Assembly: GCF_050717515.1 (NCBI RefSeq) | Contig: NZ_JBOITL010000032.1 | Span: forward strand, 1 to 32,000 | Reading direction: 5' to 3' | DNA from: Clostridium sp. | Lineage (GTDB): Bacteria > Bacillota > Clostridia > Clostridiales > Clostridiaceae | DNA length: 32,000 nt | In this document: in pieces, positions 9,641 to 25,073 of the stretch | How positions within the stretch are numbered: the stretch's first letter is position 1 | How the letters are laid out: each line of letters begins with the position of its first letter | Program-made: the position numbers and the translations under genes | The notes under the pieces: model-generated | The model's input: the letters and a program-made list of their open reading frames with translations, nothing else | Database searches by the model: none | Told to the model about the DNA's origin: nothing

Positions 9641-10351
9641 ATGGGTAAAAATATATTAGTTGTAGATGATGATAAAGAAATAGTTAATTTAATTGAAATA
9701 TATTTAACTAATGAAGGACATAATATTTACAAAGCATATGATGGTGAACAAGCTTTGCAGGTTATAGATAATTATAATATAAATCTTATAATACTAGATA
9801 TAATGATGCCTAAAATTGATGGTATAGAAGTGTGTAACAAAGTTCGCGAGAAACTTAATATACCTATAATTATGTTAAGTGCTAAAAATCAAGATTCAGA
9901 TAAAATAAAAGGGTTATTGTCAGGAGCTGATGATTATATGGTAAAACCCTTTAATCCTTTAGAACTTATGGTTAGAGTTAAGTCTATATTTAGAAGGATT
10001 TACGAATTCGATAAAAATAGTGATGAATTAAAAGATAGAGATACTATAGTTATAGGACCACTTAAAATTAAAAAATCCACTCATCAGGTAGAAGTATATA
10101 ATAAGATTATTGCTTTAACTTCTACAGAATTTGAAATATTACACGTCCTAGCTAATAATCCAGGGAGAGTTTTTAGTGCAGAAGAAATATTTCAAAGAGT
10201 TTGGAAGGAAAAATATTATCAATCTAATAATACAGTTATGACTCACATGAGTAAATTAAGAGATAAGCTTGATGAAGTTTTAGATGGTGAGAAACTTATT
10301 CATACTATATGGGGAGTAGGGTATAAAATTGAAAAGAAAACTTATATATAA
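9641..10351 (+). CDS. vanR: VanR-like OmpR-family response regulator (the only intact copy)
   Basis: Receiver domain (VVDDD, phospho-acceptor context LIILDIMMP, SAKN, DDYMVKPF) plus a winged helix ending NNTVMTHMSKLRDKL...TIWGVGYKIEKK. Compare Tn1546 VanR, which ends NNTITVHIRHLREKM...TVWGVGYKIEK. Confidence 0.88.
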   Translation: MGKNILVVDDDKEIVNLIEIYLTNEGHNIYKAYDGEQALQVIDNYNINLIILDIMMPKIDGIEVCNKVREKLNIPIIMLSAKNQDSDKIKGLLSGADDYMVKPFNPLELMVRVKSIFRRIYEFDKNSDELKDRDTIVIGPLKIKKSTHQVEVYNKIIALTSTEFEILHVLANNPGRVFSAEEIFQRVWKEKYYQSNNTVMTHMSKLRDKLDEVLDGEKLIHTIWGVGYKIEKKTYI

Positions 10352-11432
10352 ATTAGAGTTAAAAGTAGTTTTTAATATATTTCTTGTTTTTCTATTATCA
10401 GCATTAACAATGGCAGTATTTTATATTATGTGGAAGTTTTTTTTGGTAATATGTACAATCTATTCACAACGATTTTTAGATATAATTTATAGGCTAAGGC
10501 AATATGTCGATTTTATAAATATAACAAGTGCACTATGGATAATAATTTTTATAAGTTATTCCCATTTATTGCTTTACAAGAAAATTAAGTACTTTGTAGA
10601 AGTTGATGAACATATGAAAGCTATAGCCGCGGGTAGGATAGATAAAAAAATACCAGAACAATCGAAAGCAGAGCTTGGGAAAATGGCTAAAAATATGAAT
10701 GAAATAATAGAAAAATTAAATAAATCAATAGAAGAAGAGCGGAGAGCAGAACAAACAAAATATGAATTAATAACAAATGTATCTCATGATTTACGCACTC
10801 CATTAACCTCAATATTAGGGTATCTTGAACTAATAGATAAGGATAGATATGAAGATGAAGTTAGGCTTAGATACTATGTAAGTATTGCCTATGAAAAATC
10901 AAAGCGATTGAATACTTTAATTGATGACTTATTTCAATATACTATAATGAGAAATAGTACTTTAAAATTAAAAAAAGAATCAATAAACGTAATTGAACTT
11001 TTAAATCAAGTGGTATTGGAATTTAATCCACAGTTTAGAAAAAAAAATATAGAATGTAGGACATATTTTTCGGAGGATAAACTCTTAATAATGGCTGATG
11101 CAGCTAAATTAGCTAGAGCATTTGAAAATCTAATTTCTAACGGTATGAACTATGGAAGTGGGACTGAGTATATTGACATATGTACTAGGAAAGAAAATAA
11201 TAGTGCGGTTATAGAGGTAATTAATTATGGTGAGCCAATACCAAGTATAGATGTACCTTTTATTTTTGAAAGGTTCTATAGAGTTGAAAAGTCACGTTCG
11301 GAATTTGCTGGAGGATCAGGACTCGGTCTTGCTATAACTAAAAGTATAATCGAGCTTCATGAGGGTGAAATTTTTGTTGAAAGCAATTATGAGAGAACTG
11401 TTTTTATAATTAAATTGCCCTTGGGTAGTTAA
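10329..11432 (+). CDS. vanS: VanS-like sensor histidine kinase, copy 2
   Basis: TTG start overlaps the vanR 3' end. Same architecture and motifs as 1625-2728. The HAMP/DHp region is nearly identical at nucleotide level, while the N-terminal sensor part is much more diverged. Confidence 0.88.
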   Translation: MKRKLIYKLELKVVFNIFLVFLLSALTMAVFYIMWKFFLVICTIYSQRFLDIIYRLRQYVDFINITSALWIIIFISYSHLLLYKKIKYFVEVDEHMKAIAAGRIDKKIPEQSKAELGKMAKNMNEIIEKLNKSIEEERRAEQTKYELITNVSHDLRTPLTSILGYLELIDKDRYEDEVRLRYYVSIAYEKSKRLNTLIDDLFQYTIMRNSTLKLKKESINVIELLNQVVLEFNPQFRKKNIECRTYFSEDKLLIMADAAKLARAFENLISNGMNYGSGTEYIDICTRKENNSAVIEVINYGEPIPSIDVPFIFERFYRVEKSRSEFAGGSGLGLAITKSIIELHEGEIFVESNYERTVFIIKLPLGS

Positions 11433-11477
11433 TAAGATTTTAGAAATTACTTATGAAATATGATTTTGATGTAAAAG

Positions 11478-11515
11478 TAGCAAATGGATAGTGTAAATAT
11501 TTATTTGCTATTTTT
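11478..11515 (+). terminator. Rho-independent terminator after vanS-2
   Basis: TAGCAAAT (11478-11485) pairs with ATTTGCTA (11503-11510), followed by T5. Confidence 0.55.
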
Positions 11516-11633
11516 ATTTGAAATTATGAACCTTACATACTTGTCATATTCCTGTAAGCTTTACAGATAGTAAGTTATACATTATCATTATAGACTATAT
11601 GTATGTTTATAATTAGTTTCGAAGGAGTGGTAA

Positions 11634-12485
11634 ATAATCGATATAATATTTTTAGTAAAAGCAATTATAATAGCAATAGTAGAAGGGCTAACGGAGTTTA
11701 TCCCAGTATCTTCTACAGGACACATGATATTAGTTGGATGGGCAATTGGGTTTCAAGGGAAATTTGCAGAGATGTTTGAAGTTGTAATTCAACTTGGAGC
11801 AATAATGGCAGTGGTTGTTTTATATTGGAAGAAGATTAAAGAAAGTTTAATAGAATTTTTTAAGTTTATATTTACTAAAGGAAAAGAGGGAAAGAAAGGA
11901 TTTAAATTTGGGGTAAATGTTATTATAGCATCTATTCCCATGGGAATTGTAGGAGTATTATTATACGATAAAATCAAATCAAAATTTGTACCAGAAGCTG
12001 TCATAGTAGGATTTATAGTTGGTGGATTATTGTTATTAATAATTGAAAAGAGATTTGGGGGTAGGGATCATAAAGTAGAAAGTATAGATAACATAACACC
12101 TGTACAAGCATTTAAAATTGGGTTATTACAACTTCTTTCTGTATGGCCAGGAATGTCAAGAAGTGCGTCTACAATCATGGGTGGGTGGATTGCTGGATTA
12201 ACAACACCAATAGCAGCAGAGTTTTCATTTTTCATAGCCATTCCCGCTATGATAGGGGCAACAGGTAAGGATTTATTTGAATTTGATTATTCTGTAATGA
12301 CGAAAACATTATGGATTGCATTAATAGTTGGATTTATTGTAGCCTTCATAGTATCTATAATAGTTATGAAAAAATTTGTTGATTACTTGAAAAAGAAGCC
12401 GATGAAAGTTTTTGCAGTATATAGAATAGTAATAGGAAGTCTACTTGGGATATTAGTATTAACTAAGATTATTATTTTAACATAG
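11634..12485 (+). CDS. uppP: Undecaprenyl-diphosphate phosphatase UppP/BacA; the start codon is apparently non-canonical
   Basis: The ORF track starts at Met 11724. The conserved N-terminal motif VEGLTEFIPVSSTGH is encoded in frame upstream (11679-11723). The frame is open only back to TAA 11631-11633 and holds no ATG/GTG/TTG in between. RBS GGAGTGG at 11624-11630 precedes ATA 11634 and ATC 11637. Confidence 0.8.
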   Translation: MIDIIFLVKAIIIAIVEGLTEFIPVSSTGHMILVGWAIGFQGKFAEMFEVVIQLGAIMAVVVLYWKKIKESLIEFFKFIFTKGKEGKKGFKFGVNVIIASIPMGIVGVLLYDKIKSKFVPEAVIVGFIVGGLLLLIIEKRFGGRDHKVESIDNITPVQAFKIGLLQLLSVWPGMSRSASTIMGGWIAGLTTPIAAEFSFFIAIPAMIGATGKDLFEFDYSVMTKTLWIALIVGFIVAFIVSIIVMKKFVDYLKKKPMKVFAVYRIVIGSLLGILVLTKIIILT

Positions 12486-12529
12486 TTGTTGATTTGAGAG
12501 AAAATTATAGAGAGGATGGTTAAATTAAA

Positions 12530-13102
12530 ATGGTTTATTATTTAGCAAATTCTATAAATTTAGGATGGGATCAATTTTTTATTGCCCTTTCAAAATCTTC
12601 AGGCAAAATTCCTCAGCTTTTATTAACCGCATTAGTTTTTATTATACTATATTATTTCAATAAAAAAGTAGAAGCTATTTGCTGTGTATTTAATATCGGA
12701 TTTACTGGTTTTATCAACTTGATACTTAAAAACACAGTAAAAAGAGATAGACCCATGGGAATATGGTTAATGAAGGCTGATGGCTATAGTTTTCCTAGCG
12801 GTCATTCTTCTATTTCTACGGCTATAGGAATTGTACTTATTTATATTATATTTAAACAAATAAAGAATAAAAAAATCGCTTATTTAATGAGTGGGTTTAT
12901 ATTTGCATATTTAATTCTTGTAGGAATTAGTAGGGTTTATGTTGGAGTGCACTATCCGGGAGATGTTTTTGGGGGATGGTTTATAGCTGGAATATGGTCT
13001 TATATTACTATTATAGTTTATAAGTTTTGTATGAAGAAAGGCCTAGATAAATATTTAGATAAACATTTTACCATTAAATTCAATATTTTCAGAAGTAAAT
13101 AA
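12530..13102 (+). CDS. PAP2-family (BcrC-like) membrane phosphatase
   Basis: KRDRP, PSGHS and SRVYVGVHYPGDV are the three PAP2 acid-phosphatase motifs, in a protein with about 5 TM helices. Confidence 0.8.
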   Translation: MVYYLANSINLGWDQFFIALSKSSGKIPQLLLTALVFIILYYFNKKVEAICCVFNIGFTGFINLILKNTVKRDRPMGIWLMKADGYSFPSGHSSISTAIGIVLIYIIFKQIKNKKIAYLMSGFIFAYLILVGISRVYVGVHYPGDVFGGWFIAGIWSYITIIVYKFCMKKGLDKYLDKHFTIKFNIFRSK

Positions 13103-13744: not shown

Positions 13745-13823
13745 AATTTATCTCCTTTGTTAAAAAAAATTTGATTGTATTTAATTATAATCAAATAAGT
13801 CAAAAGTTACAAGGTTATTTAAG

Positions 13824-13851
13824 GTGCCACCCACGTGGCAAGTGGCAAGTT
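13824..13851. repeat. 28-bp GC-rich element, copy a (GTGCCACCCACGTGGCAAGTGGCAAGTT)
   Basis: Exact reverse complement of 16215-16242. It contains the palindrome CCACGTGG and can fold as GCCAC-TTG-CCAC/GTGG-GTGGC. Confidence 0.9.
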
Positions 13852-13868
13852 ATGAAAAGAAATATTTG

Positions 13869-13929
13869 TAAGGTTTATTTAAGGTTAATGTTATCAAGAG
13901 GTAAGGTTAACCTTATATAATGTATTTAT
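13869..13929 (+). promoter_or_regulatory. TAAGGTT-box promoter, copy a (upstream of the TlpA-like operon)
   Basis: 61 nt identical to 16246-16306 except for one base. TAAGGTT occurs twice at 11-bp phasing, followed by the perfect 14-bp palindrome TAAGGTTAACCTTA (13902-13915) and TATAAT at 13916-13921. Confidence 0.65.
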
Positions 13930-13974
13930 TGTATAAGAATAAAAATAGAACTTGCAAATAAAGGAGAATTGATT

Positions 13975-15069
13975 ATGAAAAGAAAATTTCTAACAATTTT
14001 AATAGTAGGAGTGATTTGTATATCCATGGTGGCTTGTAATAAGTCTACGGAGGAAAAATCAAAACAAGCTCAAAATAAAACGGAACAAACAGAAACTAAA
14101 AAAGAAGATGCAGGAAAGAAATTTGAAAATTTAGGTATTGAATATAAATTACCAGATAAGTGGAAAGCAAAAGAGAAAAATATAGATTTACTTGGAATTG
14201 ATGGAGGAGAAAATATAATAGGACAGCTTATGTTTAGCTTTACATCTACTGAAACTATGAACAAGATTGAGAAATCAAATGAGGATTCAAAAAAAATCCC
14301 AGAAACAGACAAAGTAAAAATGGAGAAATTTCAAACAGAATTTATGAATTTATTAAAAGAGAGTAAAGAATTATGTACTATTGTAACTATAGATAAAAGT
14401 AAAACCGCAGGCAAAGCGCAAAAAGAATTGTTCGCCAAGTTTAAAAATAAGGATTTATTAGGTAAAGAAGGTAACTTTGAAATTTACTTATTACATAATG
14501 ATGTACCTGAGGAAAGTGGATTATCGGATAAATCTAAAAAAGATTTTAAAGAAGTATATGGAGAAATTAAAAATTTTAAAAGTTTGATTAAAACATCTAA
14601 ACCAGTATCAGAAAAAGAAAAATTAAACAAATATAAGAAGTTTGAGTTTAAAACTAAAACTTTAGATGGAAAAGAAATAGATAGTAGTATTTTTAAAGAT
14701 AGTAAGCTTACTATGATAAATATATGGGCTACATATTGTGGACCATGTATAGAAGAAATGCCAGATCTTCAAAAGCTTTACGAAGAAGTTAAGGGGGAGA
14801 AGATTAATGTGATTGGTCTTGTTTCAGACACACCTGACGCGGATAATGAAGAATTAGCTAAACAAATTTTACAAAAAAAAGGTGCCAAGTTTACTAATAT
14901 TATTCCAGATGAAAGCATTAAAAATAATATATTGAAAGATGTTTCAGGGGTTCCTACTACATTATTTGTTGACAGTAAAGGTAATATTGTTGGAGACTTT
15001 ATAGTTGGTTCACATAGTAAAGAAGACTATAAGAAAGAAATAGAAGCTAGGCTTAAAAGTATAAAATAG
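13975..15069 (+). CDS. Lipoprotein with C-terminal TlpA/ResA-like thioredoxin domain and a long N-terminal domain of unknown function
   Basis: Start ATG 13975 lies 6 nt after AAAGGAGAA. Signal peptide with lipobox (ISMVAC). About 230 K/E-rich residues with no family I recognise, then INIWATYCGPCIEEMPDL (CGPC active site) and GVPTTLFVD (cis-Pro loop). Confidence 0.75.
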   Translation: MKRKFLTILIVGVICISMVACNKSTEEKSKQAQNKTEQTETKKEDAGKKFENLGIEYKLPDKWKAKEKNIDLLGIDGGENIIGQLMFSFTSTETMNKIEKSNEDSKKIPETDKVKMEKFQTEFMNLLKESKELCTIVTIDKSKTAGKAQKELFAKFKNKDLLGKEGNFEIYLLHNDVPEESGLSDKSKKDFKEVYGEIKNFKSLIKTSKPVSEKEKLNKYKKFEFKTKTLDGKEIDSSIFKDSKLTMINIWATYCGPCIEEMPDLQKLYEEVKGEKINVIGLVSDTPDADNEELAKQILQKKGAKFTNIIPDESIKNNILKDVSGVPTTLFVDSKGNIVGDFIVGSHSKEDYKKEIEARLKSIK

Positions 15070-15190
15070 AAGTGTAAATGAATTATAGTTCAGAAGTAAA
15101 CTACCTCACCTTATATTAGGTGGGGTATATATCATAATTGGGGTTATTAATTTTAAGAGTAAAAATTTTATTATAAGCTAATTATAGGAA

Positions 15191-15376
15191 ATGAAAAAAA
15201 GATGGGATGTGAATTTTATGAATACAAATAGGCTTACTAAAAGCCAAGGATTAATGAAATATGGGATTCTAACAATGAGTATTTTATTTATTTCTACTGG
15301 AATATACAGAAATGAAGTAAGAATTGTATTCAGAAAAGCAATAAATATATGTTTGGAGTGTATAGGCATTGGATAA
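15191..15376 (+). CDS. Small membrane protein with C-terminal CXXC (CD1871A-family-like); start uncertain
   Basis: One TM helix (YGILTMSILFISTGIY) and a C-terminal INICLECIGIG. Alternative starts are M10 and M22. Its stop overlaps the TTG start of the next gene by 8 nt. Confidence 0.55.
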   Translation: MKKRWDVNFMNTNRLTKSQGLMKYGILTMSILFISTGIYRNEVRIVFRKAINICLECIGIG

Positions 15377-16199
15377 AAGAAGAATAACGCAAATTGTTGC
15401 AGCTATAACCACAAATGCAAATGTAAATGGGTTTTTAAAAGGTAATATATATAAAGGCGCCACAAAGAAAGTGTGTGTTCCAGGCTTAAACTGTTACTCT
15501 TGTCCTGGAGCAGTAGGTTCCTGCCCTATAGGTTCACTGCAGGCGGTTATAGGAACTGTAAAATATAATGTTTCATTATATATACTTGGAATCATGTCTT
15601 TATTTGGTGTTATATTTGGTAGATTTGTATGTGGATGGTTATGTCCTTTTGGTCTTATTCAAGATTTATTATATAAAATACCTTCTAAAAAGATAAAAGT
15701 AAATATAAAAGTCAATAATATACTTAAGTATTTAAAATATATTATATTGGCATTATTTGTTATAATATTACCCATGTTTTTAGTAAATGAATTTGGAATA
15801 AGTCCTCCATATTTTTGTGAATACATATGTCCGGCGGGCACACTAGAAGGTGGCATACCATTAGTTTTAATGAATGTATCACTAAGGAGAGCTCTAGGAT
15901 ACTTATTTGTATGGAAGATGTTTGTACTAATTAGCATTATTATTGCTTCAATATTTATATATAGACCATTTTGTAGGTATATATGTCCCTTAGGAGCATT
16001 TTACTCCTTATTTAATAAAGTGAGTTTTTACAAATATGAAGTAGATAAAAACAAGTGTACAAACTGTAGTGCTTGTGTTAGAAAATGTAAGATGAATATA
16101 GAAATATATAAAAATCCTAACAGTGCTGAGTGTATTAGGTGTGGTGAGTGTGTAACAGCTTGCCCTACAAAGGCTATAAAAAAAGGATTTAGGCGTTAA
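15369..16199 (+). CDS. NapH/NosR-like polytopic 4Fe-4S-binding membrane protein
   Basis: Membrane-proximal Cys motifs CYSCPGAVGSCP, CGWLCPFG, CEYICPAG and CRYICPLG. A C-terminal 2x[4Fe-4S] ferredoxin domain (CTNCSACVRKC ... CIRCGECVTACP). About 5 TM helices. Confidence 0.8.
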   Translation: MDKRRITQIVAAITTNANVNGFLKGNIYKGATKKVCVPGLNCYSCPGAVGSCPIGSLQAVIGTVKYNVSLYILGIMSLFGVIFGRFVCGWLCPFGLIQDLLYKIPSKKIKVNIKVNNILKYLKYIILALFVIILPMFLVNEFGISPPYFCEYICPAGTLEGGIPLVLMNVSLRRALGYLFVWKMFVLISIIIASIFIYRPFCRYICPLGAFYSLFNKVSFYKYEVDKNKCTNCSACVRKCKMNIEIYKNPNSAECIRCGECVTACPTKAIKKGFRR

Positions 16200-16214
16200 C
16201 AGCACTTTTTCTTA

Positions 16215-16242
16215 AACTTGCCACTTGCCACGTGGGTGGCAC
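16215..16242. repeat. 28-bp GC-rich element, copy b (inverted relative to copy a); possibly doubles as a terminator
   Basis: AACTTGCCACTTGCCACGTGGGTGGCAC starts 16 nt after the 4Fe-4S gene stop and is followed by TTTT. Confidence 0.9.
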
Positions 16243-16245
16243 TTT

Positions 16246-16306
16246 TAAGGTTTGTTTAAGGTTAATGTTATCAAGAGGTAAGGTTAACCTTATATAATGT
16301 ATTTAT
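16246..16306 (+). promoter_or_regulatory. TAAGGTT-box promoter, copy b (upstream of the ABC-2 transporter operon)
   Basis: Same 61-nt block as 13869-13929. TATAAT at 16293-16298. Confidence 0.65.
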
Positions 16307-16344: not shown

Positions 16345-17364
16345 ATGATATATTGGGAACTTAAAAAAATATTCAAATCAAAAACTGGAATAATTGTAGC
16401 AATAATATTTATTTTACTTTGTGTATCAATGGCTTTTATAAAACCAGAGATGGAAACACAAAAGTCACATAGAAATGAGCAATATCAGTTAATTAATGAT
16501 ACAAGACCAGCCACGGTAATTGCACAAGAAAAATTAGATGCAAAAATAGGAACAATAAAGGAAATGTCAAATAGTAAGGACAAAGATGATTTTAGTAAAG
16601 GTATAAAAGAAATATCAACTAAAAAACTGAAAGCTATGGAAGACACTAAGTATAGTGATGTTAGCTTCTGGAAGGTATTCGATTATAGAGCAACCAATAC
16701 ACTTATGGCATTCTTTATGGTGGTAATTCTAATCATAGTTTGTTGCAATATATACACGGATGAAATTGTGTCTACAGTAGAAAATTTGATTCTTACATCA
16801 AAAAATAAAAATAGAGCTTTATATTCAAAATTAGGACTTGGAATATTAATACCAACAGTTTTATATGGGTTTTATCTAGTAATCCAATTTATAATAACAG
16901 CAGTCCAATATGGCCTGCCAATAAATGGAGGGTTACAAGCCATAAGAATAATAGACAACCCTATTTTAGTAAGAGATGCATATACTATAACTCAATTTAT
17001 AATATTAAAGATAGGCATAATGATATTGATATTAGCTACACTAGGTGTAATTGCATGTTTATCTTCATTTTTAACAACAAGCTCAATTGCAGCTACAAGT
17101 GGATTCTTGATGTTTATTATTATTCCAAAATTGTTAACAATGGTAAAAGTAATTCCAGGTAATGTTCAAATGCTATTAAATAGTATTAATTTTGTAAATT
17201 TACTATTCTATTTTAAACAGTTTGCAGGCGTATATTATGGGAATGTAAAATTCTTTGGGATGAACTTTGACTTAATTAATCTTTGCCTTGGAATATTGGG
17301 AATGACTTTAGTGGCAGGAATTACAATGAGCATAGTATCATTTAAAAAAGTATTAGTAAGATAA
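16345..17364 (+). CDS. ABC-2-type transporter permease with an extracytoplasmic loop of about 75 aa
   Basis: RBS AGGAGG. One N-terminal TM helix, a hydrophilic loop (residues about 35-110), then about 5 TM helices. It lies next to an ABC ATPase gene. Confidence 0.65.
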   Translation: MIYWELKKIFKSKTGIIVAIIFILLCVSMAFIKPEMETQKSHRNEQYQLINDTRPATVIAQEKLDAKIGTIKEMSNSKDKDDFSKGIKEISTKKLKAMEDTKYSDVSFWKVFDYRATNTLMAFFMVVILIIVCCNIYTDEIVSTVENLILTSKNKNRALYSKLGLGILIPTVLYGFYLVIQFIITAVQYGLPINGGLQAIRIIDNPILVRDAYTITQFIILKIGIMILILATLGVIACLSSFLTTSSIAATSGFLMFIIIPKLLTMVKVIPGNVQMLLNSINFVNLLFYFKQFAGVYYGNVKFFGMNFDLINLCLGILGMTLVAGITMSIVSFKKVLVR

Positions 17365-17399
17365 TTAATAGATTTTAAAATTAGAGGAGGAATATAATT

Positions 17400-18287
17400 A
17401 TGAATAAGCTTGAGATAAAAAATTTAACAAAAAGCTATGGAAAAAAGAATGCAAACAATAATATAACACTTACTTTAGAAAATGGTGTATACGGACTACT
17501 AGGACCAAACGGAGCGGGTAAAACTACATTAATGAAACAAATAGTAACTTTAACAAAGCCTACTAGTGGAAAAATTATTTATAATGGAAAAAGTATTTAT
17601 GAAAAAGAAGATGAGTATAGAAATATTATTGGATATTTACCACAAGAATTTGGTGCATATAAGAATTTTACAGCAAAACAATTTTTGCAATATGTGGCTG
17701 CATTAAAAGGAATAGACAAAAAAAGTGCTTCCCAAAAAATTGATGAATTACTAAACCTTGTTGGATTATATGAGGTTAAAAATAAGGCAGTTGGTAAATT
17801 CTCCGGTGGTATGAAAAGAAGAGTTGGAATTGCACAAGTATTATTAAATGATCCTAAAATAGTTGTACTAGATGAACCAACAGCGGGCTTAGATCCCCAA
17901 GAAAGAGCAAGGTTTAGAAATCTTATCGCTGAAATATCAAAGGATAAAATAATAATACTTTCAACTCATATTATTTCAGATATAGAAGCAGTAGCAAGAG
18001 AAACTATAATGATTAAAAATGGCAGCGTTATAATAAAAGGAAATCATAAAGATATATTAAATGGCATGAAGGGAAAAGTATATAAGATTACAACAAATAA
18101 AGAAAATGAAGTTATGGATATACAAAGAGATTATAAGGTAGTTAACCTTCAAAGGGGTGCGGATATTACAGAGCTTAGAGTAGTAAGTGATAAAATGCCT
18201 CTATATGCATCAGCGCAGAGCATAGAACCAAGATTCGAAGATGTATATATGTTTTACTTTGATTTAGAAAATACTAAGGAGGTGTAA
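17400..18287 (+). CDS. ABC transporter ATP-binding protein (ABC-2/BcrA-like subfamily with C-terminal extension)
   Basis: Walker A GPNGAGKTT, Q-loop, signature FSGGMKRRVGIA, Walker B VVLDEPTAGLD and H-loop STHI. Confidence 0.9.
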   Translation: MNKLEIKNLTKSYGKKNANNNITLTLENGVYGLLGPNGAGKTTLMKQIVTLTKPTSGKIIYNGKSIYEKEDEYRNIIGYLPQEFGAYKNFTAKQFLQYVAALKGIDKKSASQKIDELLNLVGLYEVKNKAVGKFSGGMKRRVGIAQVLLNDPKIVVLDEPTAGLDPQERARFRNLIAEISKDKIIILSTHIISDIEAVARETIMIKNGSVIIKGNHKDILNGMKGKVYKITTNKENEVMDIQRDYKVVNLQRGADITELRVVSDKMPLYASAQSIEPRFEDVYMFYFDLENTKEV

Positions 18288-18290
18288 CTT

Positions 18291-19055
18291 ATGGGAATTC
18301 TTATAAAATCAGAAATAAGAAAAATGTTATTAAAACCTAGCATAATAATAACTTGGATTGTTTTACTTTTATTTTGTAAAATTTTAATTAGGCCAGGTAC
18401 AGGTGCAGAGGTTTGGGCAGATGTATTTAGTAAAACTTATGGAATCGTACCACTTATAGGATTAATAACCTTTATGATAATTTCAGCTACATATACACTT
18501 GAATATAGCTCTAATATGAATGAACTTATCAATACGACCCAAAATGGAAAGAAAAAAGTTGTAATGGCGAAATGGATTGGTGCAGGCATATCAACGTCAA
18601 TAGTTAATGTATCAATAGTACTTATAATATATATAGATGGATTAATAAAATCTAATTTTAAAGGGTTAGACTTACCATTAAAAGATCTTTGGTATTTTGG
18701 AAATAGTGGTTCAAACATAACTGTATTGCAAATGATGATTATACTTATAATAACTGTTATAATAGGTTCATTCTTTTTCTCAGAACTCGGACTATATCTA
18801 TCATCGATAAGTAAATCAGCTTCTATACCTTTTATTTTTGGGGGTCTACTTATGGGAGTGCCATATATGCTAGGCGGTTTTGTACCTTCAAAATATTTTG
18901 GGGTAACTCCACTTTGGGGAATGATGTCATCAGAATTAATAAGATACAAGGTTCCAATGGCATTAATTATAGTTCAAATAGTAATAGTTATTGCTGGCTT
19001 TGTATTTTTACCAAAGGTTACCCACAAAGCATTTATAAAAGAAGGAAAAAGATAA
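18291..19055 (+). CDS. Second ABC-2-type permease
   Basis: Six predicted TM segments. It starts 4 nt after the ATPase stop, behind GGAGG. Confidence 0.6.
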   Translation: MGILIKSEIRKMLLKPSIIITWIVLLLFCKILIRPGTGAEVWADVFSKTYGIVPLIGLITFMIISATYTLEYSSNMNELINTTQNGKKKVVMAKWIGAGISTSIVNVSIVLIIYIDGLIKSNFKGLDLPLKDLWYFGNSGSNITVLQMMIILIITVIIGSFFFSELGLYLSSISKSASIPFIFGGLLMGVPYMLGGFVPSKYFGVTPLWGMMSSELIRYKVPMALIIVQIVIVIAGFVFLPKVTHKAFIKEGKR

Positions 19056-19102
19056 TCAGTTAGTTTTTATGGTATTATATAGTTAGAAACTTAAAGACAT
19101 TT

Positions 19103-19139
19103 CAAAAGACTAAACAATTAATAATTGTCTAGTCTTTTG
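19103..19139 (+). terminator. Long hairpin after the ABC operon (17-bp stem, one mismatch); probable terminator or attenuator
   Basis: CAAAAGACTAAACAATT-AAT-AATTGTCTAGTCTTTTG. The T-run is confined to the stem end. Confidence 0.5.
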
Positions 19140-19193
19140 AAGTATTTAAGACAAGATCTTTATGTGATGATTTAATTTTAAGGGGTGATAATT

Positions 19194-19913
19194 ATGGAGA
19201 ATTCAATTAATAAAAGCAAAATACTAATAGTTGATGATGAAGAGGACATATTAAAACTTTTATCTACTGTACTTAAAAAAGAGGGTTTTGAAAATATATA
19301 TACTGCAATAGCGGCAAAAGAAGCAATAGATTTAGTATCGCGGTTAGACCCAGATATTATTCTCTTGGATATAATGATGCCAGGTAGAGATGGGTATGAA
19401 GTATGCAAAGAGATAAGAAAGACTTCTAGAACCCCAATTTTATTTATGTCGGCTAAGACGGAAGAGCTAGATAGGATTTTGGGTTTTGCTTTAGGGGCTG
19501 ATGATTATATTACAAAGCCTTTCAGTCCAAAAGAGGTTGCCTATAGAGTAAAGGCTCATTTAAGAAGAAATAATTATATTGATGAAGATAAAACCGAAAA
19601 AGACAAAATCATAGTTTTTGGACCTTTTGAATTAAATGAGGAAAAGATAGAGTTTAAAAAGAATGGTGAGCCAATACAGTTAAAAGCAAAAGAATTTAAG
19701 ATGTTAGCTTATATGTTGAAAAACCCAAACCAAATCCTCAGCAAGGAAAAAATCTGCAGTGGAGTTTGGGGAGAAGATTATATAGGCTTTGACAATACAA
19801 TTATGGTTCACATAAGAAGACTCCGAGAGAAAATAGAGGATAATCCTTCATTGCCCAAATATATAGTTAATATTAAAGGTCTAGGATACAAATTTGTTGT
19901 AAAGGATGAATAG
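19194..19913 (+). CDS. OmpR-family response regulator (second system)
   Basis: The preferred start is ATG 19194, after AAGGGG. Receiver motifs (VDDEE, LLDIMMP, SAKT, DDYITKPF) and a winged helix with FDNTIMVHIRRLREKI...IKGLGYKF. Confidence 0.88.
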   Translation: MENSINKSKILIVDDEEDILKLLSTVLKKEGFENIYTAIAAKEAIDLVSRLDPDIILLDIMMPGRDGYEVCKEIRKTSRTPILFMSAKTEELDRILGFALGADDYITKPFSPKEVAYRVKAHLRRNNYIDEDKTEKDKIIVFGPFELNEEKIEFKKNGEPIQLKAKEFKMLAYMLKNPNQILSKEKICSGVWGEDYIGFDNTIMVHIRRLREKIEDNPSLPKYIVNIKGLGYKFVVKDE

Positions 19914-19915
19914 AG

Positions 19916-21331
19916 ATGAAATGGAAATTAATAGCTAGATTCATGTGGACTGTGGTTTCTGTAGTTATAATTGTAATGATTATAAATATTATTGCAGTGT
20001 TTTCTTTTATTATTTATAATAATACGACAAAAAGCGCCTTAATAGAGAAAAAATTAGAAGATGTAGGGATAGAAAATTATACTAGAGATTTTAGTAAATA
20101 TATTATGATTAGTAAAGAAGCTGTGGATATAGACAAGGATGGTAAATCAAGTTTGGACAATAACAATATTTGGATACAAATATTAGATGAGCAAAGTAAA
20201 GAAGTATATAGTTATAGAAAACCAAAGGGCGCAAAAGAGAGCTATACTCCTTTTGAATTGATTAATCAATATAAATATGTGGATGTAAAAACAGGAGCTA
20301 CTACTTTTATAGGTGAAAAACAGATAAAAGGACGCAAATACAGCTATATAATAGGACTACCACTTGCCAAGGTGCAGAGGGAAGTAATTACTATTAACTA
20401 CGATAATTTTATAGGGATTATTGGTAAATTTATTTATAGCATCTTAATATTAGATGCGCTTATTGCATTGTTTTTTGCATACTTTTTCTCAAGAAGGCTT
20501 ACTAGACCTTTAAGTAATATAATAAATGGGGTTCTAGTATTATCTGATGGAAATTATAATTTAGAATTATCCGAAAAGGGTATATACACTGTGGTCTATC
20601 GAAACCTAAACAACCTTTCATCAACTCTTAAGAGCAATGAAATAGAAAGAAAAAAACTTGATAAGATGAGGGAAGAATGGATTTCAAATATGTCACATGA
20701 TATTAAGACACCTCTGGTATCTATAAAAGGATATGCGGAACTCTTAAGCAGCGATGACTATGATTTATCAAAAGAAGAGGTAAAACAGTATTCAAAAATA
20801 ATAGACAGTAAGGCCAACTATATAAAAGAGCTTGTAGATGATTTGAATTTAACAACAAGATTAAAAAATAAAGTATTGAAGTTAAACAAGAAAAAAGTAA
20901 ATATGGTTAGCTTGGTACGAAATGCTGTAATTGACATACTAAACGACCCGAGTAACGCTGAGGTAGATATTGATTTCATTTGTGAAAGTGAAGATATAGA
21001 AGCTTTTGTGGATGCTAGTCTTATAATGAGGACTATGAAAAATTTAATATATAATGCAATAGTTCATAATGAAGAGGGGGTAAATATAAAAGTATCCGTT
21101 GAAAAGAAGGATAACTTGAAAATTGTTATAAGTGATAACGGAAAAGGAATAAGACCGGAAGAGCTAAACCATATATTCGAAAGATATTATAGGGGTACAA
21201 ATACCGGGAAGGGACATGAAGGTTCAGGGCTTGGAATGGCTATTGCAAATGATATAGTAAAAGCACATGATGGCGAAATTAAGATACTAAGTGAGCTTGG
21301 ACGCGGTACTGAAATAGAAATCTATTTATAA
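19916..21331 (+). CDS. Sensor histidine kinase with an extracytoplasmic domain of about 130 aa (second system)
   Basis: Two TM helices flank residues about 35-165, followed by a HAMP domain. H-box NMSHDIKTPLVSIKGY, N-box NLIYNAIVHN, and G-boxes DNGKGI and GSGLGMAI. Confidence 0.88.
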   Translation: MKWKLIARFMWTVVSVVIIVMIINIIAVFSFIIYNNTTKSALIEKKLEDVGIENYTRDFSKYIMISKEAVDIDKDGKSSLDNNNIWIQILDEQSKEVYSYRKPKGAKESYTPFELINQYKYVDVKTGATTFIGEKQIKGRKYSYIIGLPLAKVQREVITINYDNFIGIIGKFIYSILILDALIALFFAYFFSRRLTRPLSNIINGVLVLSDGNYNLELSEKGIYTVVYRNLNNLSSTLKSNEIERKKLDKMREEWISNMSHDIKTPLVSIKGYAELLSSDDYDLSKEEVKQYSKIIDSKANYIKELVDDLNLTTRLKNKVLKLNKKKVNMVSLVRNAVIDILNDPSNAEVDIDFICESEDIEAFVDASLIMRTMKNLIYNAIVHNEEGVNIKVSVEKKDNLKIVISDNGKGIRPEELNHIFERYYRGTNTGKGHEGSGLGMAIANDIVKAHDGEIKILSELGRGTEIEIYL

Positions 21332-22897: not shown

Positions 22898-23545
22898 TTG
22901 AATATACTAATTGCTGATGATGAGAAACAAATGGTGAAAATTCTTTCAACTTATTTTCAAAAGGAAGGGTTTAATACAATTACAGCAGTGGATGGCGAGC
23001 AAGCATTAGATTTATTTCATTTGCATAAAATTGATTTAGCAATTTTAGATTGGATGATGCCTAAAGTTAGTGGTGTTGAGGTTTGCAAGTATATTAAAGA
23101 AAATAGTAATGCAAAGGTACTAATTTTAACGGCGAAAACGCAAAATGAAGATGAGATTGAAGCATTAAATTGTGGAGCTGATGAATACATAAAAAAGCCT
23201 TTTGATCCTAGAATACTTTTAATAAGGGCAAAAAAACTTATAAATATTAATGATGTGATAAATATTAATAATATAAAAATAAATACAGATGAGCAAAGGG
23301 TATATAAAAATGGAGAAGTCTTAAAATTAACAAAAATAGAATATGATCTTTTGATTTCCTTTGTTAGAAACAAGGGAATTATTTTATCCAGAGATAAGCT
23401 AATAGATTTAGTTTGGGGGATGGATTATGAGGGAGATTATAGAACGGTAGATACCCATATAAGAAGGCTCCGATCAAAAATAGGTGAGGATAGTATAAAA
23501 ACTTATAGAAGACTTGGTTACAGTATGGAGGCTGATGAAAATTAA
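22898..23545 (+). CDS. OmpR-family response regulator (third system)
   Basis: TTG start after AAAGGAG. Receiver motifs (ADDE, ILDWMMP, TAKT, DEYIKKPF) and a winged helix YRTVDTHIRRLRSKI...LGY. Confidence 0.85.
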   Translation: MNILIADDEKQMVKILSTYFQKEGFNTITAVDGEQALDLFHLHKIDLAILDWMMPKVSGVEVCKYIKENSNAKVLILTAKTQNEDEIEALNCGADEYIKKPFDPRILLIRAKKLININDVININNIKINTDEQRVYKNGEVLKLTKIEYDLLISFVRNKGIILSRDKLIDLVWGMDYEGDYRTVDTHIRRLRSKIGEDSIKTYRRLGYSMEADEN

Positions 23546-24905
23546 AATAAGTAAAAAATTGAGATTGTCTATAGCCTCAGTTATAATTTTTGTAACTATA
23601 ATTTCTATGGTAATAAATATATTCTTTATTGATAGATATTATATATTTAAAAAAACAAAGGCATTAAATAAGATTTCTGAGGGGATAAGCAGAGAAAAAA
23701 TAGATTATACTTTAAAAAATATAGGACAAATAGAAAAGAAAAATAGTGTCACTATAGTTTATTCAGAGCTAAGTAGTGACATTGATAATATTAATAAGGA
23801 GTTAATAACTAAATTTGATTTAAAAAAAATTAAATTAAATAAATTTTGGGTTACAGAAGATACCTTGAGCAAGATATCTAGTACAAGTGTAAATAAGATA
23901 TATGATCAAGGAGTAACAAAATATAAGGTATTAACAAAGTTTATAAAGGTTGATAAGTATATAGTTGCTATAGCAATGCCACTACCTTATATGGGGGAAA
24001 CTATAGATATTGTAAATAAGTTTAATATATATTTAAATATATTTTCTATAATTTTAATATTAATTTTAGTTAATATTTTTTCGAGTAAAATAATAAAACC
24101 ATTAGAACTTATAAAAAATTTATCAAAGGATATCGCTAGTTTAAATTTTAGAAAAGAAGAAATTAAAACAAATGATGAAATAGAAGAACTTGCTATAAGT
24201 ATAAATAGTATGAGTGAAAGCTTAGAGCAGGCACATAAGGAAATTAATCTTCAAAATGAAAGGCTAAAGACTTTGATTTCAGATATGGCTCATGAAATTA
24301 AAACCCCCTTAGCTTTAATAAAAGTATATGGACATGGTATTGAGGATGGGTTAGATGACGGAACATATATGGAGATAATTCAAGAGCAAATAGGCAATAT
24401 GGATAGTTTAGTAGAAAATATTTTATTTTTATCGAAAATTGAAAAAAAAGAATTAAAAAAATCTAGTTTTAGTTTAAAACAGAAGGTTAAAGATGTTTTA
24501 AAAAAATACAAACTACTTATAGATGAAGCTAACATAGAATTCATATTAAATATAGATAAAGATGATGAATGTATTGTTTATGGAGATGAGGAAGGGCTTG
24601 ATACTGTATTAAATAATTTAATTACAAATGCAATAAAGTATACTAATAATAACGAGGTAGAAATAGAAATATTTAAAGAAAACAATAATATAATATTTTC
24701 TATAGTGAATGGATTAGAGGAAAGTAGTGGAGAAAATTTAGAAAATATATGGGATCCTTTTTATGTGCTTGAAAAATCAAGGAGCAAGGAACTTTCTGGT
24801 ACAGGACTAGGTCTATCTATAGTAAAGAAAATATTAGAAAAGAATAATATCAACTTTGGGTTTAATGTAAAAGAAGATAAGATTGAATTTTATATAATAT
24901 TTTAA
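23535..24905 (+). CDS. Sensor histidine kinase with an extracytoplasmic domain of about 140 aa (third system)
   Basis: The preferred start is ATG 23535, behind GGAGG, overlapping the regulator's 3' end. H-box DMAHEIKTPLALIKVY, N-box NLITNAIKYT and G-box GTGLGLSI. Confidence 0.85.
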   Translation: MKIKISKKLRLSIASVIIFVTIISMVINIFFIDRYYIFKKTKALNKISEGISREKIDYTLKNIGQIEKKNSVTIVYSELSSDIDNINKELITKFDLKKIKLNKFWVTEDTLSKISSTSVNKIYDQGVTKYKVLTKFIKVDKYIVAIAMPLPYMGETIDIVNKFNIYLNIFSIILILILVNIFSSKIIKPLELIKNLSKDIASLNFRKEEIKTNDEIEELAISINSMSESLEQAHKEINLQNERLKTLISDMAHEIKTPLALIKVYGHGIEDGLDDGTYMEIIQEQIGNMDSLVENILFLSKIEKKELKKSSFSLKQKVKDVLKKYKLLIDEANIEFILNIDKDDECIVYGDEEGLDTVLNNLITNAIKYTNNNEVEIEIFKENNNIIFSIVNGLEESSGENLENIWDPFYVLEKSRSKELSGTGLGLSIVKKILEKNNINFGFNVKEDKIEFYIIF

Positions 24906-25007
24906 CGACATTTCAGAAGGGAAGACCCCACATCTACAAGTAGAGAATATCTACCATAGCAAAATGAAATTTCAGTGTGAGTCTAAATCTCCTTCTGAAG
25001 TCGTTAA
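24902..25007. other. 106-nt inverted-repeat, multi-stem element (structured RNA or MITE-like remnant)
   Basis: TTAACGAC(AT)TTCAGAAGG at 24902-24920 pairs with CCTTCTGAAGTCGTTAA at 24991-25007 (17 bp with a 2-nt bulge). An inner helix joins AGAC..CACA and TGTG..GTCT, and there is a GTAGA-GAATA-TCTAC hairpin. It is GC-richer than its surroundings and overlaps the kinase stop codon. Confidence 0.5.
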
Positions 25008-25044
25008 TATTGCAGCATCGCAGATGGTGATTTAAATATAGGTT

Positions 25045-25073
25045 TTGTAACATTGGTGTAACATTTCTATAGT
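25045..25073 (+). promoter_or_regulatory. Putative promoter of the large lipoprotein gene
   Basis: TTGTAA, a 17-nt spacer, then TATAGT. TGTAACAT is repeated twice at 11-bp phasing (25046-25053 and 25057-25064), which could be a regulator site. Confidence 0.4.

Follow-up and report, generated by a model that had tools for sequence, protein, structure and literature searches.

Two neighbouring operons in the 32,000-nt stretch of Clostridium DNA analysed here (NZ_JBOITL010000032.1, positions 1 to 32,000; hereafter the window) are each preceded by a copy of the same promoter-like block, named P1 and P2. The first operon (trx-cxxc-fdx) encodes a thioredoxin-fold lipoprotein, a small CXXC protein and a membrane polyferredoxin. 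The second encodes an ABC transporter and has genes for a response regulator and a histidine kinase at its end. The gene assignments of the initial annotation, made from the sequence of the window, were borne out by Pfam. The features of the locus are as follows.

13866 to 13929, plus strand: candidate promoter copy P1, identified from the repeat, its half-sites, an alignment of homology-derived promoters (A2) and 43 genome-scan sites
Parts of P1: TAAGGTT at 13869-13875, 13880-13886 and 13902-13908; TTATCA (conserved) at 13891-13896; -10 hexamer TATAAT at 13916-13921
13975 to 15069, plus strand: TlpA/redoxin-family lipoprotein (Pfam Redoxin/AhpC-TSA; homologues)
15191 to 15376, plus strand: small CD1871A-family CXXC protein (NCBIfam NF040920, 67 bits against a cut-off of 32)
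15369 to 16199, plus strand: NapH/MauN-like membrane polyferredoxin (Pfam Fer4_5 and 4Fe-4S dicluster)
16243 to 16306, plus strand: candidate promoter copy P2, with half-sites at 16246-16252, 16257-16263 and 16279-16285 and a -10 hexamer at 16293-16298
16345 to 19055, plus strand: ABC transporter operon (permease 16345-17364, ATPase 17400-18287, permease 18291-19055)
19194 to 19913, plus strand: OmpR/PhoB-family response regulator (Pfam Response_reg PF00072 and Trans_reg_C PF00486)
19916 to 21331, plus strand: histidine kinase of 471 aa (Pfam HisKA and HATPase_c)

The lipoprotein consists of an unassigned N-terminal domain of approximately 200 aa and a thioredoxin fold; its matches to the TlpA/ResA models of NCBIfam are below cut-off, as is the match of the polyferredoxin to the napH model. 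The start codon of the CXXC protein is uncertain. Its open reading frame (ORF) runs into the beginning of the polyferredoxin gene, and an ORF is also called at the corresponding position in L007, L009 and L010 (fetched loci are cited by L number); the protein is 46-60 aa long in relatives. The TlpA-like lipoprotein, the CD1871A-family CXXC mini-protein and the NapH-like polyferredoxin (13975-16199) form a three-gene unit that is conserved in many Clostridia, and this unit could be a system for the ferredoxin-fed reduction of extracellular disulfides without CcdA/DsbD. In the second operon, the ATPase matches Pfam ABC_tran, neither permease (339 and 254 aa) has a Pfam or NCBIfam match, and the order of the ABC genes is kept in all orthologous loci. 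The kinase has two predicted transmembrane segments around a loop of approximately 130 aa, as judged by eye from the sequence. No NCBIfam equivalog model reaches its cut-off with the response regulator, for which the nearest solved structures are RegX3, MtrA and PhoP.

P1 and P2 form a 64-nt direct repeat with two mismatches. As the initial annotation had claimed, their 61-nt cores (13869-13929 and 16246-16306) differ only once (A13877 versus G16254), and each contains TAAGGTT twice in 11-bp phase (at 13869 and 13880 in P1 and at 16246 and 16257 in P2). A third TAAGGTT is found in each block (13902 and 16279) and is adjoined by its reverse complement (13909 and 16286; offsets 0, 11, 33 and 40), therefore producing the perfect 14-bp palindrome TAAGGTTAACCTTA (13902-13915) that had been described as abutting TATAAT (13916-13921). 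The distal pair of P2 is an exact TTTAAG-N5-TTTAAG. TAAGGTT occurs 17 times in the window (8 of them within the two blocks), compared with 9.2 ± 2.7 times in shuffled sequences. The absence of a -35 consensus also held, as a sigma-70 consensus scan (at least 4/6 matches in both hexamers, spacing of 16-18 nt) called neither P1 nor P2. The transcription starts of P1 and P2 are predicted to lie near 13928 and 16305. The further claim that conservation stops at the edges of the block is correct for the direct orientation but not for the inverted one, since an inverted 34-nt GC-rich element precedes each copy. The same two-promoter layout is present in the isolate genomes of Clostridium sp. FP1 (L007) and C. 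tagluense A121 (L027/L069), and the duplication is therefore not an assembly artefact.

Looking up the exact sequences of the window permease and its 100% representative, P0001, gave no match. Through proteins homologous to the first permease, orthologous modules arranged as permease-ATPase-permease-response regulator-kinase were reached in Clostridium sp. CF011 (L001) and CM028 (L002), a metagenome-assembled genome at 87% identity (L003), an uncultured Clostridium at 54% (L005) and Gottschalkia acidurici at 53% (L006). All five have one promoter of the window type and no thioredoxin operon at that position. Homologues of the thioredoxin protein gave further layouts (L007, L009 and L010). That of FP1 (L007) is identical to the layout of the window, with two promoters, while in L009 a single promoter drives a trx-cxxc-fdx-ABC-regulator-kinase operon with a gap of 11 nt between fdx and the permease gene. 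The promoter box was found in every orthologous module examined (CF011, CM028, L003, FP1, L009, L005 and G. acidurici), and its consensus, kTAAGrTTTAwTTAAGrTT-N4-TyATyA-N5-TAAG-N10-TATAAT, is retained upstream of orthologous transporter and two-component genes down to approximately 45% protein identity.

Alignment A2 contains the 11 promoters reached through protein homology. Its invariant columns are TAAG.TTT...TAA..TT....T.AT.A...G.TAAG and TA..AT. The phase of the half-sites is identical in 11/11 of these promoters and in the 43 genome-scan sites, the TAAG-N10-TATAAT spacing is invariant, and half-sites and phase are kept whereas the intervening sequence drifts. The palindrome has a variable right half (AACCTTA, GACCTTA, GGGGTTG, GGTTTTA, GAAGGGT and GAGGAGT); it is perfect only in the window and L003 and is absent from FP1 P2, L009, L005, L006 and most scan matches. 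Because this half varies freely in A2, the alignment identifies the palindrome as an accident of the window/L003 lineage and not as part of the conserved site; what is conserved is its left half, a TAAG half-site that continues the phase of the first two.

When a position-weight matrix derived from nine of these promoters was run on the fetched loci, it detected two extra sites, both before a TraX-family gene (L005 and L006). A genome-wide scan with the pattern TAAGNTTTNNNTAANNTTNNNNTNATNANNNNNTAAG, which covered one genome per species and left TAnnnT at +47 unconstrained, returned 62 matches in 60 stretches. TAnnnT is present exactly at +47 in 43 of the 62, almost all of them from Clostridia; the 19 matches without it are mostly from unrelated phyla outside the Firmicutes and were taken as chance. 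The ABC module is downstream of the site in approximately 22 cases, with an orthologue of the response regulator (58-98% identity) within a few kb in every case where the 8-kb stretch is long enough to include it; such orthologues adjoin the box in approximately 20 loci. A traX gene is downstream in approximately ten cases and the trx operon in two, C. tagluense A121 (L027) and Anaerophilus nitritogenes (L049). The other downstream genes encode a few small membrane peptides, a 139-aa lipoprotein (L019) and a 221-aa membrane protein (L068). In A. nitritogenes, the boxed trx-cxxc-fdx operon is on contig 43 (L049) and a boxed traX-perm1/ABC locus is on contig 9 (L063), and trx genes are located inside the ABC operon in L009, Tepidibacter mesophilus (L037), L046 and L066. 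The sequence anatomy of the box, its conservation, its co-occurrence with the regulator and these operon fusions are direct observations.

Boxed TraX-family membrane proteins (PF05857) were identified in approximately ten Clostridia, at L005 3883, L006 8946, L011, L015, L022, L026, L028, L032, L060 and L062-L064, with a Clostridium sporogenes contig among the set. Firmicute TraX thus appears, from the placement of these boxes, to belong to the same regulon. The two-operon regulon proposed in the initial annotation is supported by these comparisons, but in other species the set of boxed genes is wider and includes traX and small membrane peptides.

Based on these results, we predict that P1 and P2 are activator-dependent sigma-A promoters and that both operons are co-regulated by the response regulator encoded at 19194-19913, to which we assign a probability of roughly three in four. 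That the two operons answer to one regulator, as proposed earlier, is suggested by the same promoter standing before the trx and ABC operons in the window, FP1 and C. tagluense, and further by the unlinked boxed trx operon of A. nitritogenes and the four trx-ABC operon fusions. An OmpR-type regulator is indicated by the heptamer direct repeats in 11-bp phase, the lack of a -35 element and the fixed N10 distance to the -10 hexamer. The candidate named in the initial annotation is likewise favoured, as the box travels with the orthologous regulator-kinase pair through differing neighbourhoods. The other OmpR-type response regulators of the window (9641-10351 and 22898-23545) are only 36-38% identical to that of the module and have different recognition helices.

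We infer binding, activation and a shared signal along the following lines. The phosphorylated regulator, whose recognition helix is FDNTIMVHIRRLREKIE, would bind TAAGrTT half-sites (variants GGTT, GATT and GCTT) head-to-tail and 11 bp apart. A strong distal pair would be located at about -59 and -48, and a proximal pair would consist of a degenerate upstream half (TGTTAT/TTATCA, at approximately -37) and the conserved TAAG half at -26, ending 10 bp upstream of TATAAT. Two dimers could thus be arranged head-to-tail, with the proximal pair standing in for the -35 element and contacting or recruiting RNA polymerase. Through near-identical sites, the TlpA-CXXC-polyferredoxin and ABC-regulator-kinase operons would answer one signal. 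Because a hairpin at 16215-16248 probably terminates the first transcript, each operon would rely on its own copy of the promoter.

Several points weigh against this interpretation. In the literature searched, no binding, start-site or expression data for the system were found. Since the search pattern itself contained the T.AT.A and TAAG columns, the 43 scan matches conserve them by construction, and unbiased support for them comes only from the 11 homology-derived promoters. A trx operon located elsewhere in G. acidurici (L010) has no box according to the position-weight matrix, and trx is therefore not always a member of the regulon. The proximal half-site is at -26 to -20, a position equally fit for repression. 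Finally, TTAAG-type half-sites serve other OmpR-family regulators such as CiaR (PMC3091779), and in L044 and L065 they are near a response regulator only 41-42% identical to that of the module. As such sites are common to several response regulators, the half-site sequence alone cannot name the regulator. The last two points, together with the span of the proximal site (-26 to -13, typical of an operator), would also fit boxes that are bound by another protein, either an OmpR-family response regulator (9641-10351 or 22898-23545) or a repressor acting at the proximal site or palindrome. We consider this unlikely, as neighbouring two-component systems vary among the boxed loci while the regulator of the module is constant, the two other regulators have the divergent helices described above, and a perfect palindrome is restricted to the window and L003. 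Less probable still is that P1 and P2 are ordinary constitutive promoters, identical merely through recent duplication or gene conversion and without shared control. The copies in the window are near-identical while those of FP1 and C. tagluense are 7/61 apart, which indicates that the identity is recent and not proof of selection. Constitutive promoters would not, however, account for half-sites and phase kept to approximately 45% identity of the neighbouring proteins despite drift between them, for the lack of a -35 element or for a box that precedes functionally linked genes at unlinked sites.

Two further explanations were rejected and are given very little weight. P1 could be read as a MerR-type promoter in which a dimer on the spacer palindrome realigns TTATCA (13891-13896) and TATAAT (13916-13921), as these hexamers are separated by a 19-bp spacer of conserved length containing the perfect 14-bp palindrome. 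This palindrome is not conserved, the dyad being missing from FP1 P2, L009, L005, L006 and most scan matches, and a MerR-family gene was found neither in a scan of ten neighbouring proteins nor in the orthologous loci. Alternatively, the 34-nt inverted repeats (94% complementary) around P1-trx-cxxc-fdx might delimit a mobile or invertible 2.4-kb cassette (13818-16248) carrying a promoter copy, and these repeats belong to a dispersed element that is mobile or recently so. FP1 and C. tagluense keep the cassette and both promoters without the left repeat, part of a 47-nt insertion seen only in the window lineage. A sigma/anti-sigma pair encoded upstream in L003 and CF012 (L055) suggested activation by an extracytoplasmic function (ECF) sigma factor; this was rejected, as the -10 is a canonical TATAAT and the pair is missing from the other loci.

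With co-regulation by the module's own response regulator as the preferred interpretation, the history of the duplication can be traced in relatives. C. tagluense proteins are 91-98% identical to those of the window and both P1 (L027) and P2 (L069) are present, which identifies a C. tagluense-like organism as the source of the window. P1 and P2 differ at 1/61 positions in the window, 7/61 in FP1 and 7/61 in C. tagluense. Between FP1 and C. tagluense, the P1 copies differ at one position and the P2 copies at five, and orthologous P1 sequences cluster together, as do orthologous P2 sequences. Because the copies of the relatives differ at 7/61 positions and those of the window at 1/61, these comparisons place the duplication before the split of the window lineage, FP1 and C. 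tagluense, and indicate that the window copies have recently been homogenised, most simply by gene conversion. The promoter may originally have belonged to the ABC/two-component module and then been duplicated. The single promoters of CF011, CM028, L003 and CF012 (L055) are P1-like on the left, while their right side is the P2 downstream flank TATAGCAAGAT, so the single promoter of these cassette-less relatives looks like a P1 x P2 recombination product. An insertion with duplication would give the same pattern, and the change may have run in either direction.

The GC-rich element upstream of each block, GGTGCCACCCACGTGGCAAGTGGCAAG, is on the plus strand at 13823-13849 and on the minus strand at 16217-16243. 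Read as a hairpin, its sequence is aaCTTGCCACTTGCCACGTGGGTGGCACy, at 13823-13849 (minus) and 16217-16243 (plus). The 34-nt elements 13818-13851 and 16215-16248 are 94% complementary, i.e. inverted, and the 27-mer core was found with 0 and 1 mismatch where none is expected by chance. The hairpins of the locus are as follows (REP, repetitive extragenic palindromic).

13818 to 13851, minus strand: left REP-like hairpin (core 13823-13849; fold of -12.7 kcal/mol on the minus strand)
16215 to 16248, plus strand: right REP-like hairpin (10-bp stem, -18 kcal/mol, z -2.4)
19101 to 19141, plus strand: AT-rich hairpin between the last ABC gene and the response regulator gene (-23.1 kcal/mol, z -6.0)

The left hairpin is contained in the 47-nt insertion, which is flanked by TATTT/TATTT and is absent from C. 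tagluense and FP1 (alignment A1). The U-tract of the right hairpin overlaps the first half-site of P2. FP1 and C. tagluense have orthologous hairpins after fdx, each with a T5-6 run downstream, and because of these T-runs the 16215-16248 hairpin is probably the intrinsic terminator of the trx operon. The ABC leader has an extra copy of the hairpin, immediately upstream of the ribosome-binding site, in L003 (9962-9990), CF012 (L055 6015-6060), FP1 (L007 12495-12545) and C. tagluense (L069 1440-1480). In FP1, C. tagluense and CF012 a T-run comes after this copy, which looks like a terminator or attenuator; the P2 leader of the window has no such hairpin.

In the 662 kb of loci, the hairpin was confined to the trx terminator and the ABC leader of the C. 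tagluense group, and it was regarded as locus-specific until a metagenome scan overturned this view. Exact copies of the 26-mer are present in 119 JGI metagenome stretches (L071-L189) with 127 distinct flanks, in DNA averaging 31.5% GC. Copies are found in both orientations, 107 of 124 do not fall within an ORF of 80 aa or longer, and approximately 20 are within 25 nt upstream of a Shine-Dalgarno sequence. Inverted doublets occur in L082, L129, L139, L150 and L182. By its distribution, the GC-rich hairpin is classified as a dispersed REP-like element of low-GC Clostridia, separate from the regulatory block. No description of REP/REPIN-type elements in Clostridium was found in the literature searched. 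In L117 (229-1332), a gene for an Rpn/YhgA-like putative transposase (PF04754) lies between inverted copies of the element (compare L123); with Rpn/YhgA-related sequences in just 3 of the 119 stretches, an association is unsupported. The window gave no Rfam match at the gathering threshold and L069 and L007 gave none at E ≤ 1, so the leaders and hairpins are not members of any described RNA family.

A second dispersed repeat of approximately 140 nt, forming a long hairpin (-38 kcal/mol, z -5), is located at 24896-25045 of the window, where it adjoins the 3' end of a kinase gene (23514-24905). It is also found in the ABC leader of FP1 and C. tagluense (L007 12329-12493 and L069 1271-1435), with TTTAACG duplicated at its ends, and related copies are present in at least eight metagenome loci; it has no Rfam match. 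The AT-rich hairpin at 19101-19141 has a 19-bp stem without a clear T-run, and in L005, L006, L014, L017 and L021 a conserved 67-aa ORF takes the place of a hairpin of this type. Upstream of P1, the region 9641-13102 encodes an OmpR-type two-component system (9641-11432) followed by uppP and a PAP2 phosphatase, and looks like a bacitracin-type resistance cluster. A frameshift suspected in uppP was rejected, as the gene is intact with a non-ATG start near 11636 and had been shortened in the ORF list. Other Pfam calls nearby are a cupin (minus strand) and YccF.

Metaclostridioides mangenotii has a looser TTAAG run, without a -10 at +47, in L044 (871, minus strand) and L065 (3697, plus strand). 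It precedes a membrane-anchored S11 D,D-carboxypeptidase gene beside a different two-component system. The trx operon of G. acidurici is flanked by two S11 peptidase genes and VanZ. These S11 and VanZ neighbours are hints of a link to cell-wall stress.

A tentative and rather doubtful extension is that the box marks a Clostridia-wide envelope-stress regulon, comprising an ABC exporter and a ferredoxin-driven outward electron route with TraX-like acyltransferases and small membrane peptides as optional members. Electrons would pass from the NapH-like polyferredoxin to the small CXXC membrane protein and on to the TlpA-like lipoprotein. If this is true, the system would sense an antimicrobial that contains disulfides or reacts with thiols and would respond by reducing and/or expelling it, the reduction being independent of CcdA/DsbD. 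The box turns a one-genome curiosity into a testable regulon with a 53-nt signature, a named candidate regulator and target gene families, and both promoters are carried by culturable strains (C. tagluense A121 and Clostridium sp. FP1). One signal would tie together an ABC-2-like exporter without a family, the TlpA/CXXC/NapH-like trio and firmicute TraX. The loci also offer a natural series of regulon change, from one operon to two with duplicated promoters, loss of the cassette by recombination, and homogenisation. The locus is a sound and fairly ordinary example of regulon growth via promoter copying.

No description of the system was found in the literature under CD1871/CD1871A, CTn5, TraX/two-component or TlpA/NapH, and in known systems only partial counterparts were identified. 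Bce-type modules of Firmicutes sense and detoxify peptide antibiotics, and in them a two-component system adjoins an ABC transporter whose promoter is activated by the response regulator. The module of the window resembles them in that genes for an OmpR-family regulator and a kinase accompany those of an ABC transporter from genome to genome, and a regulator box precedes the transporter operon. It differs in having two separate permeases without an FtsX domain in place of one BceB-type permease, a kinase with an outside loop of approximately 130 aa in place of an intramembrane-sensing one, and regulator genes at the end of the transporter operon. Bce-type membership was therefore rejected, as neither permease is of the FtsX/BceB type and the kinase loop is too long for it; true FtsX modules are found elsewhere in L001 and L005. 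LanFEG/CprABC lantibiotic immunity was rejected as well, since the ATPase scores 177 bits against TIGR03740 (cut-off 309.75) and the permeases have no NCBIfam match. The GC-rich hairpin is similar to REP/REPIN elements in being an imperfect palindrome of approximately 28 nt with many near-identical, mostly intergenic copies in either orientation and in inverted doublets. It differs in its low-GC clostridial host and in its tandem CTTGCCA CTTGCCA (7 nt), which permits two alternative stems. No RAYT-type (Y1) transposase was identified for it, no dedicated test having been made.

The PhoB pho boxes are direct repeats of 7-bp units separated by 4-bp spacers; they take the place of the -35 element and are sometimes in tandem. 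P1 and P2 share with them the 7+4 bp periodicity, the tandem boxes, the sigma-70 promoter lacking a -35 and a winged-helix regulator expected to bind head-to-tail; they differ in the half-site (TAAGGTT versus CTGTCAT), the signal and the regulon. Streptococcal CiaR promoters have the arrangement NTTAAG-N5-TTTAAG ending 10 bp upstream of the -10, and were searched for by the rule TTTAAG-5-TTTAAG-10-TATAAT, in which the G is indispensable (PMC3091779). The promoters described here are likewise associated with an OmpR-family candidate activator and have TTAAG-type hexamers every 11 bp with an invariant G, the last of which ends 10 bp before TATAAT, and no -35 element. In contrast to CiaR promoters, the proximal pair of the window is TGTTAT-N5-GGTAAG-N10-TATAAT, with a degenerate first hexamer, while the exact pair of P2 is 22 bp (two helical turns) further upstream and the site spans four helical turns. 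No CiaR model is among the 25 best NCBIfam families for the response regulator, and the response regulator models listed are all below cut-off. The targets also differ from the CiaR regulon, being an ABC exporter, the TlpA/polyferredoxin operon and traX. In line with the OmpR/PhoB type, the candidate regulator has a receiver and a winged-helix domain, the repeats have an 11-bp period and a site at a fixed distance from the -10 appears to replace the -35 element. An activator on direct repeats is itself textbook, and the regulatory system described here is of this known kind, widely conserved yet uncharacterised.

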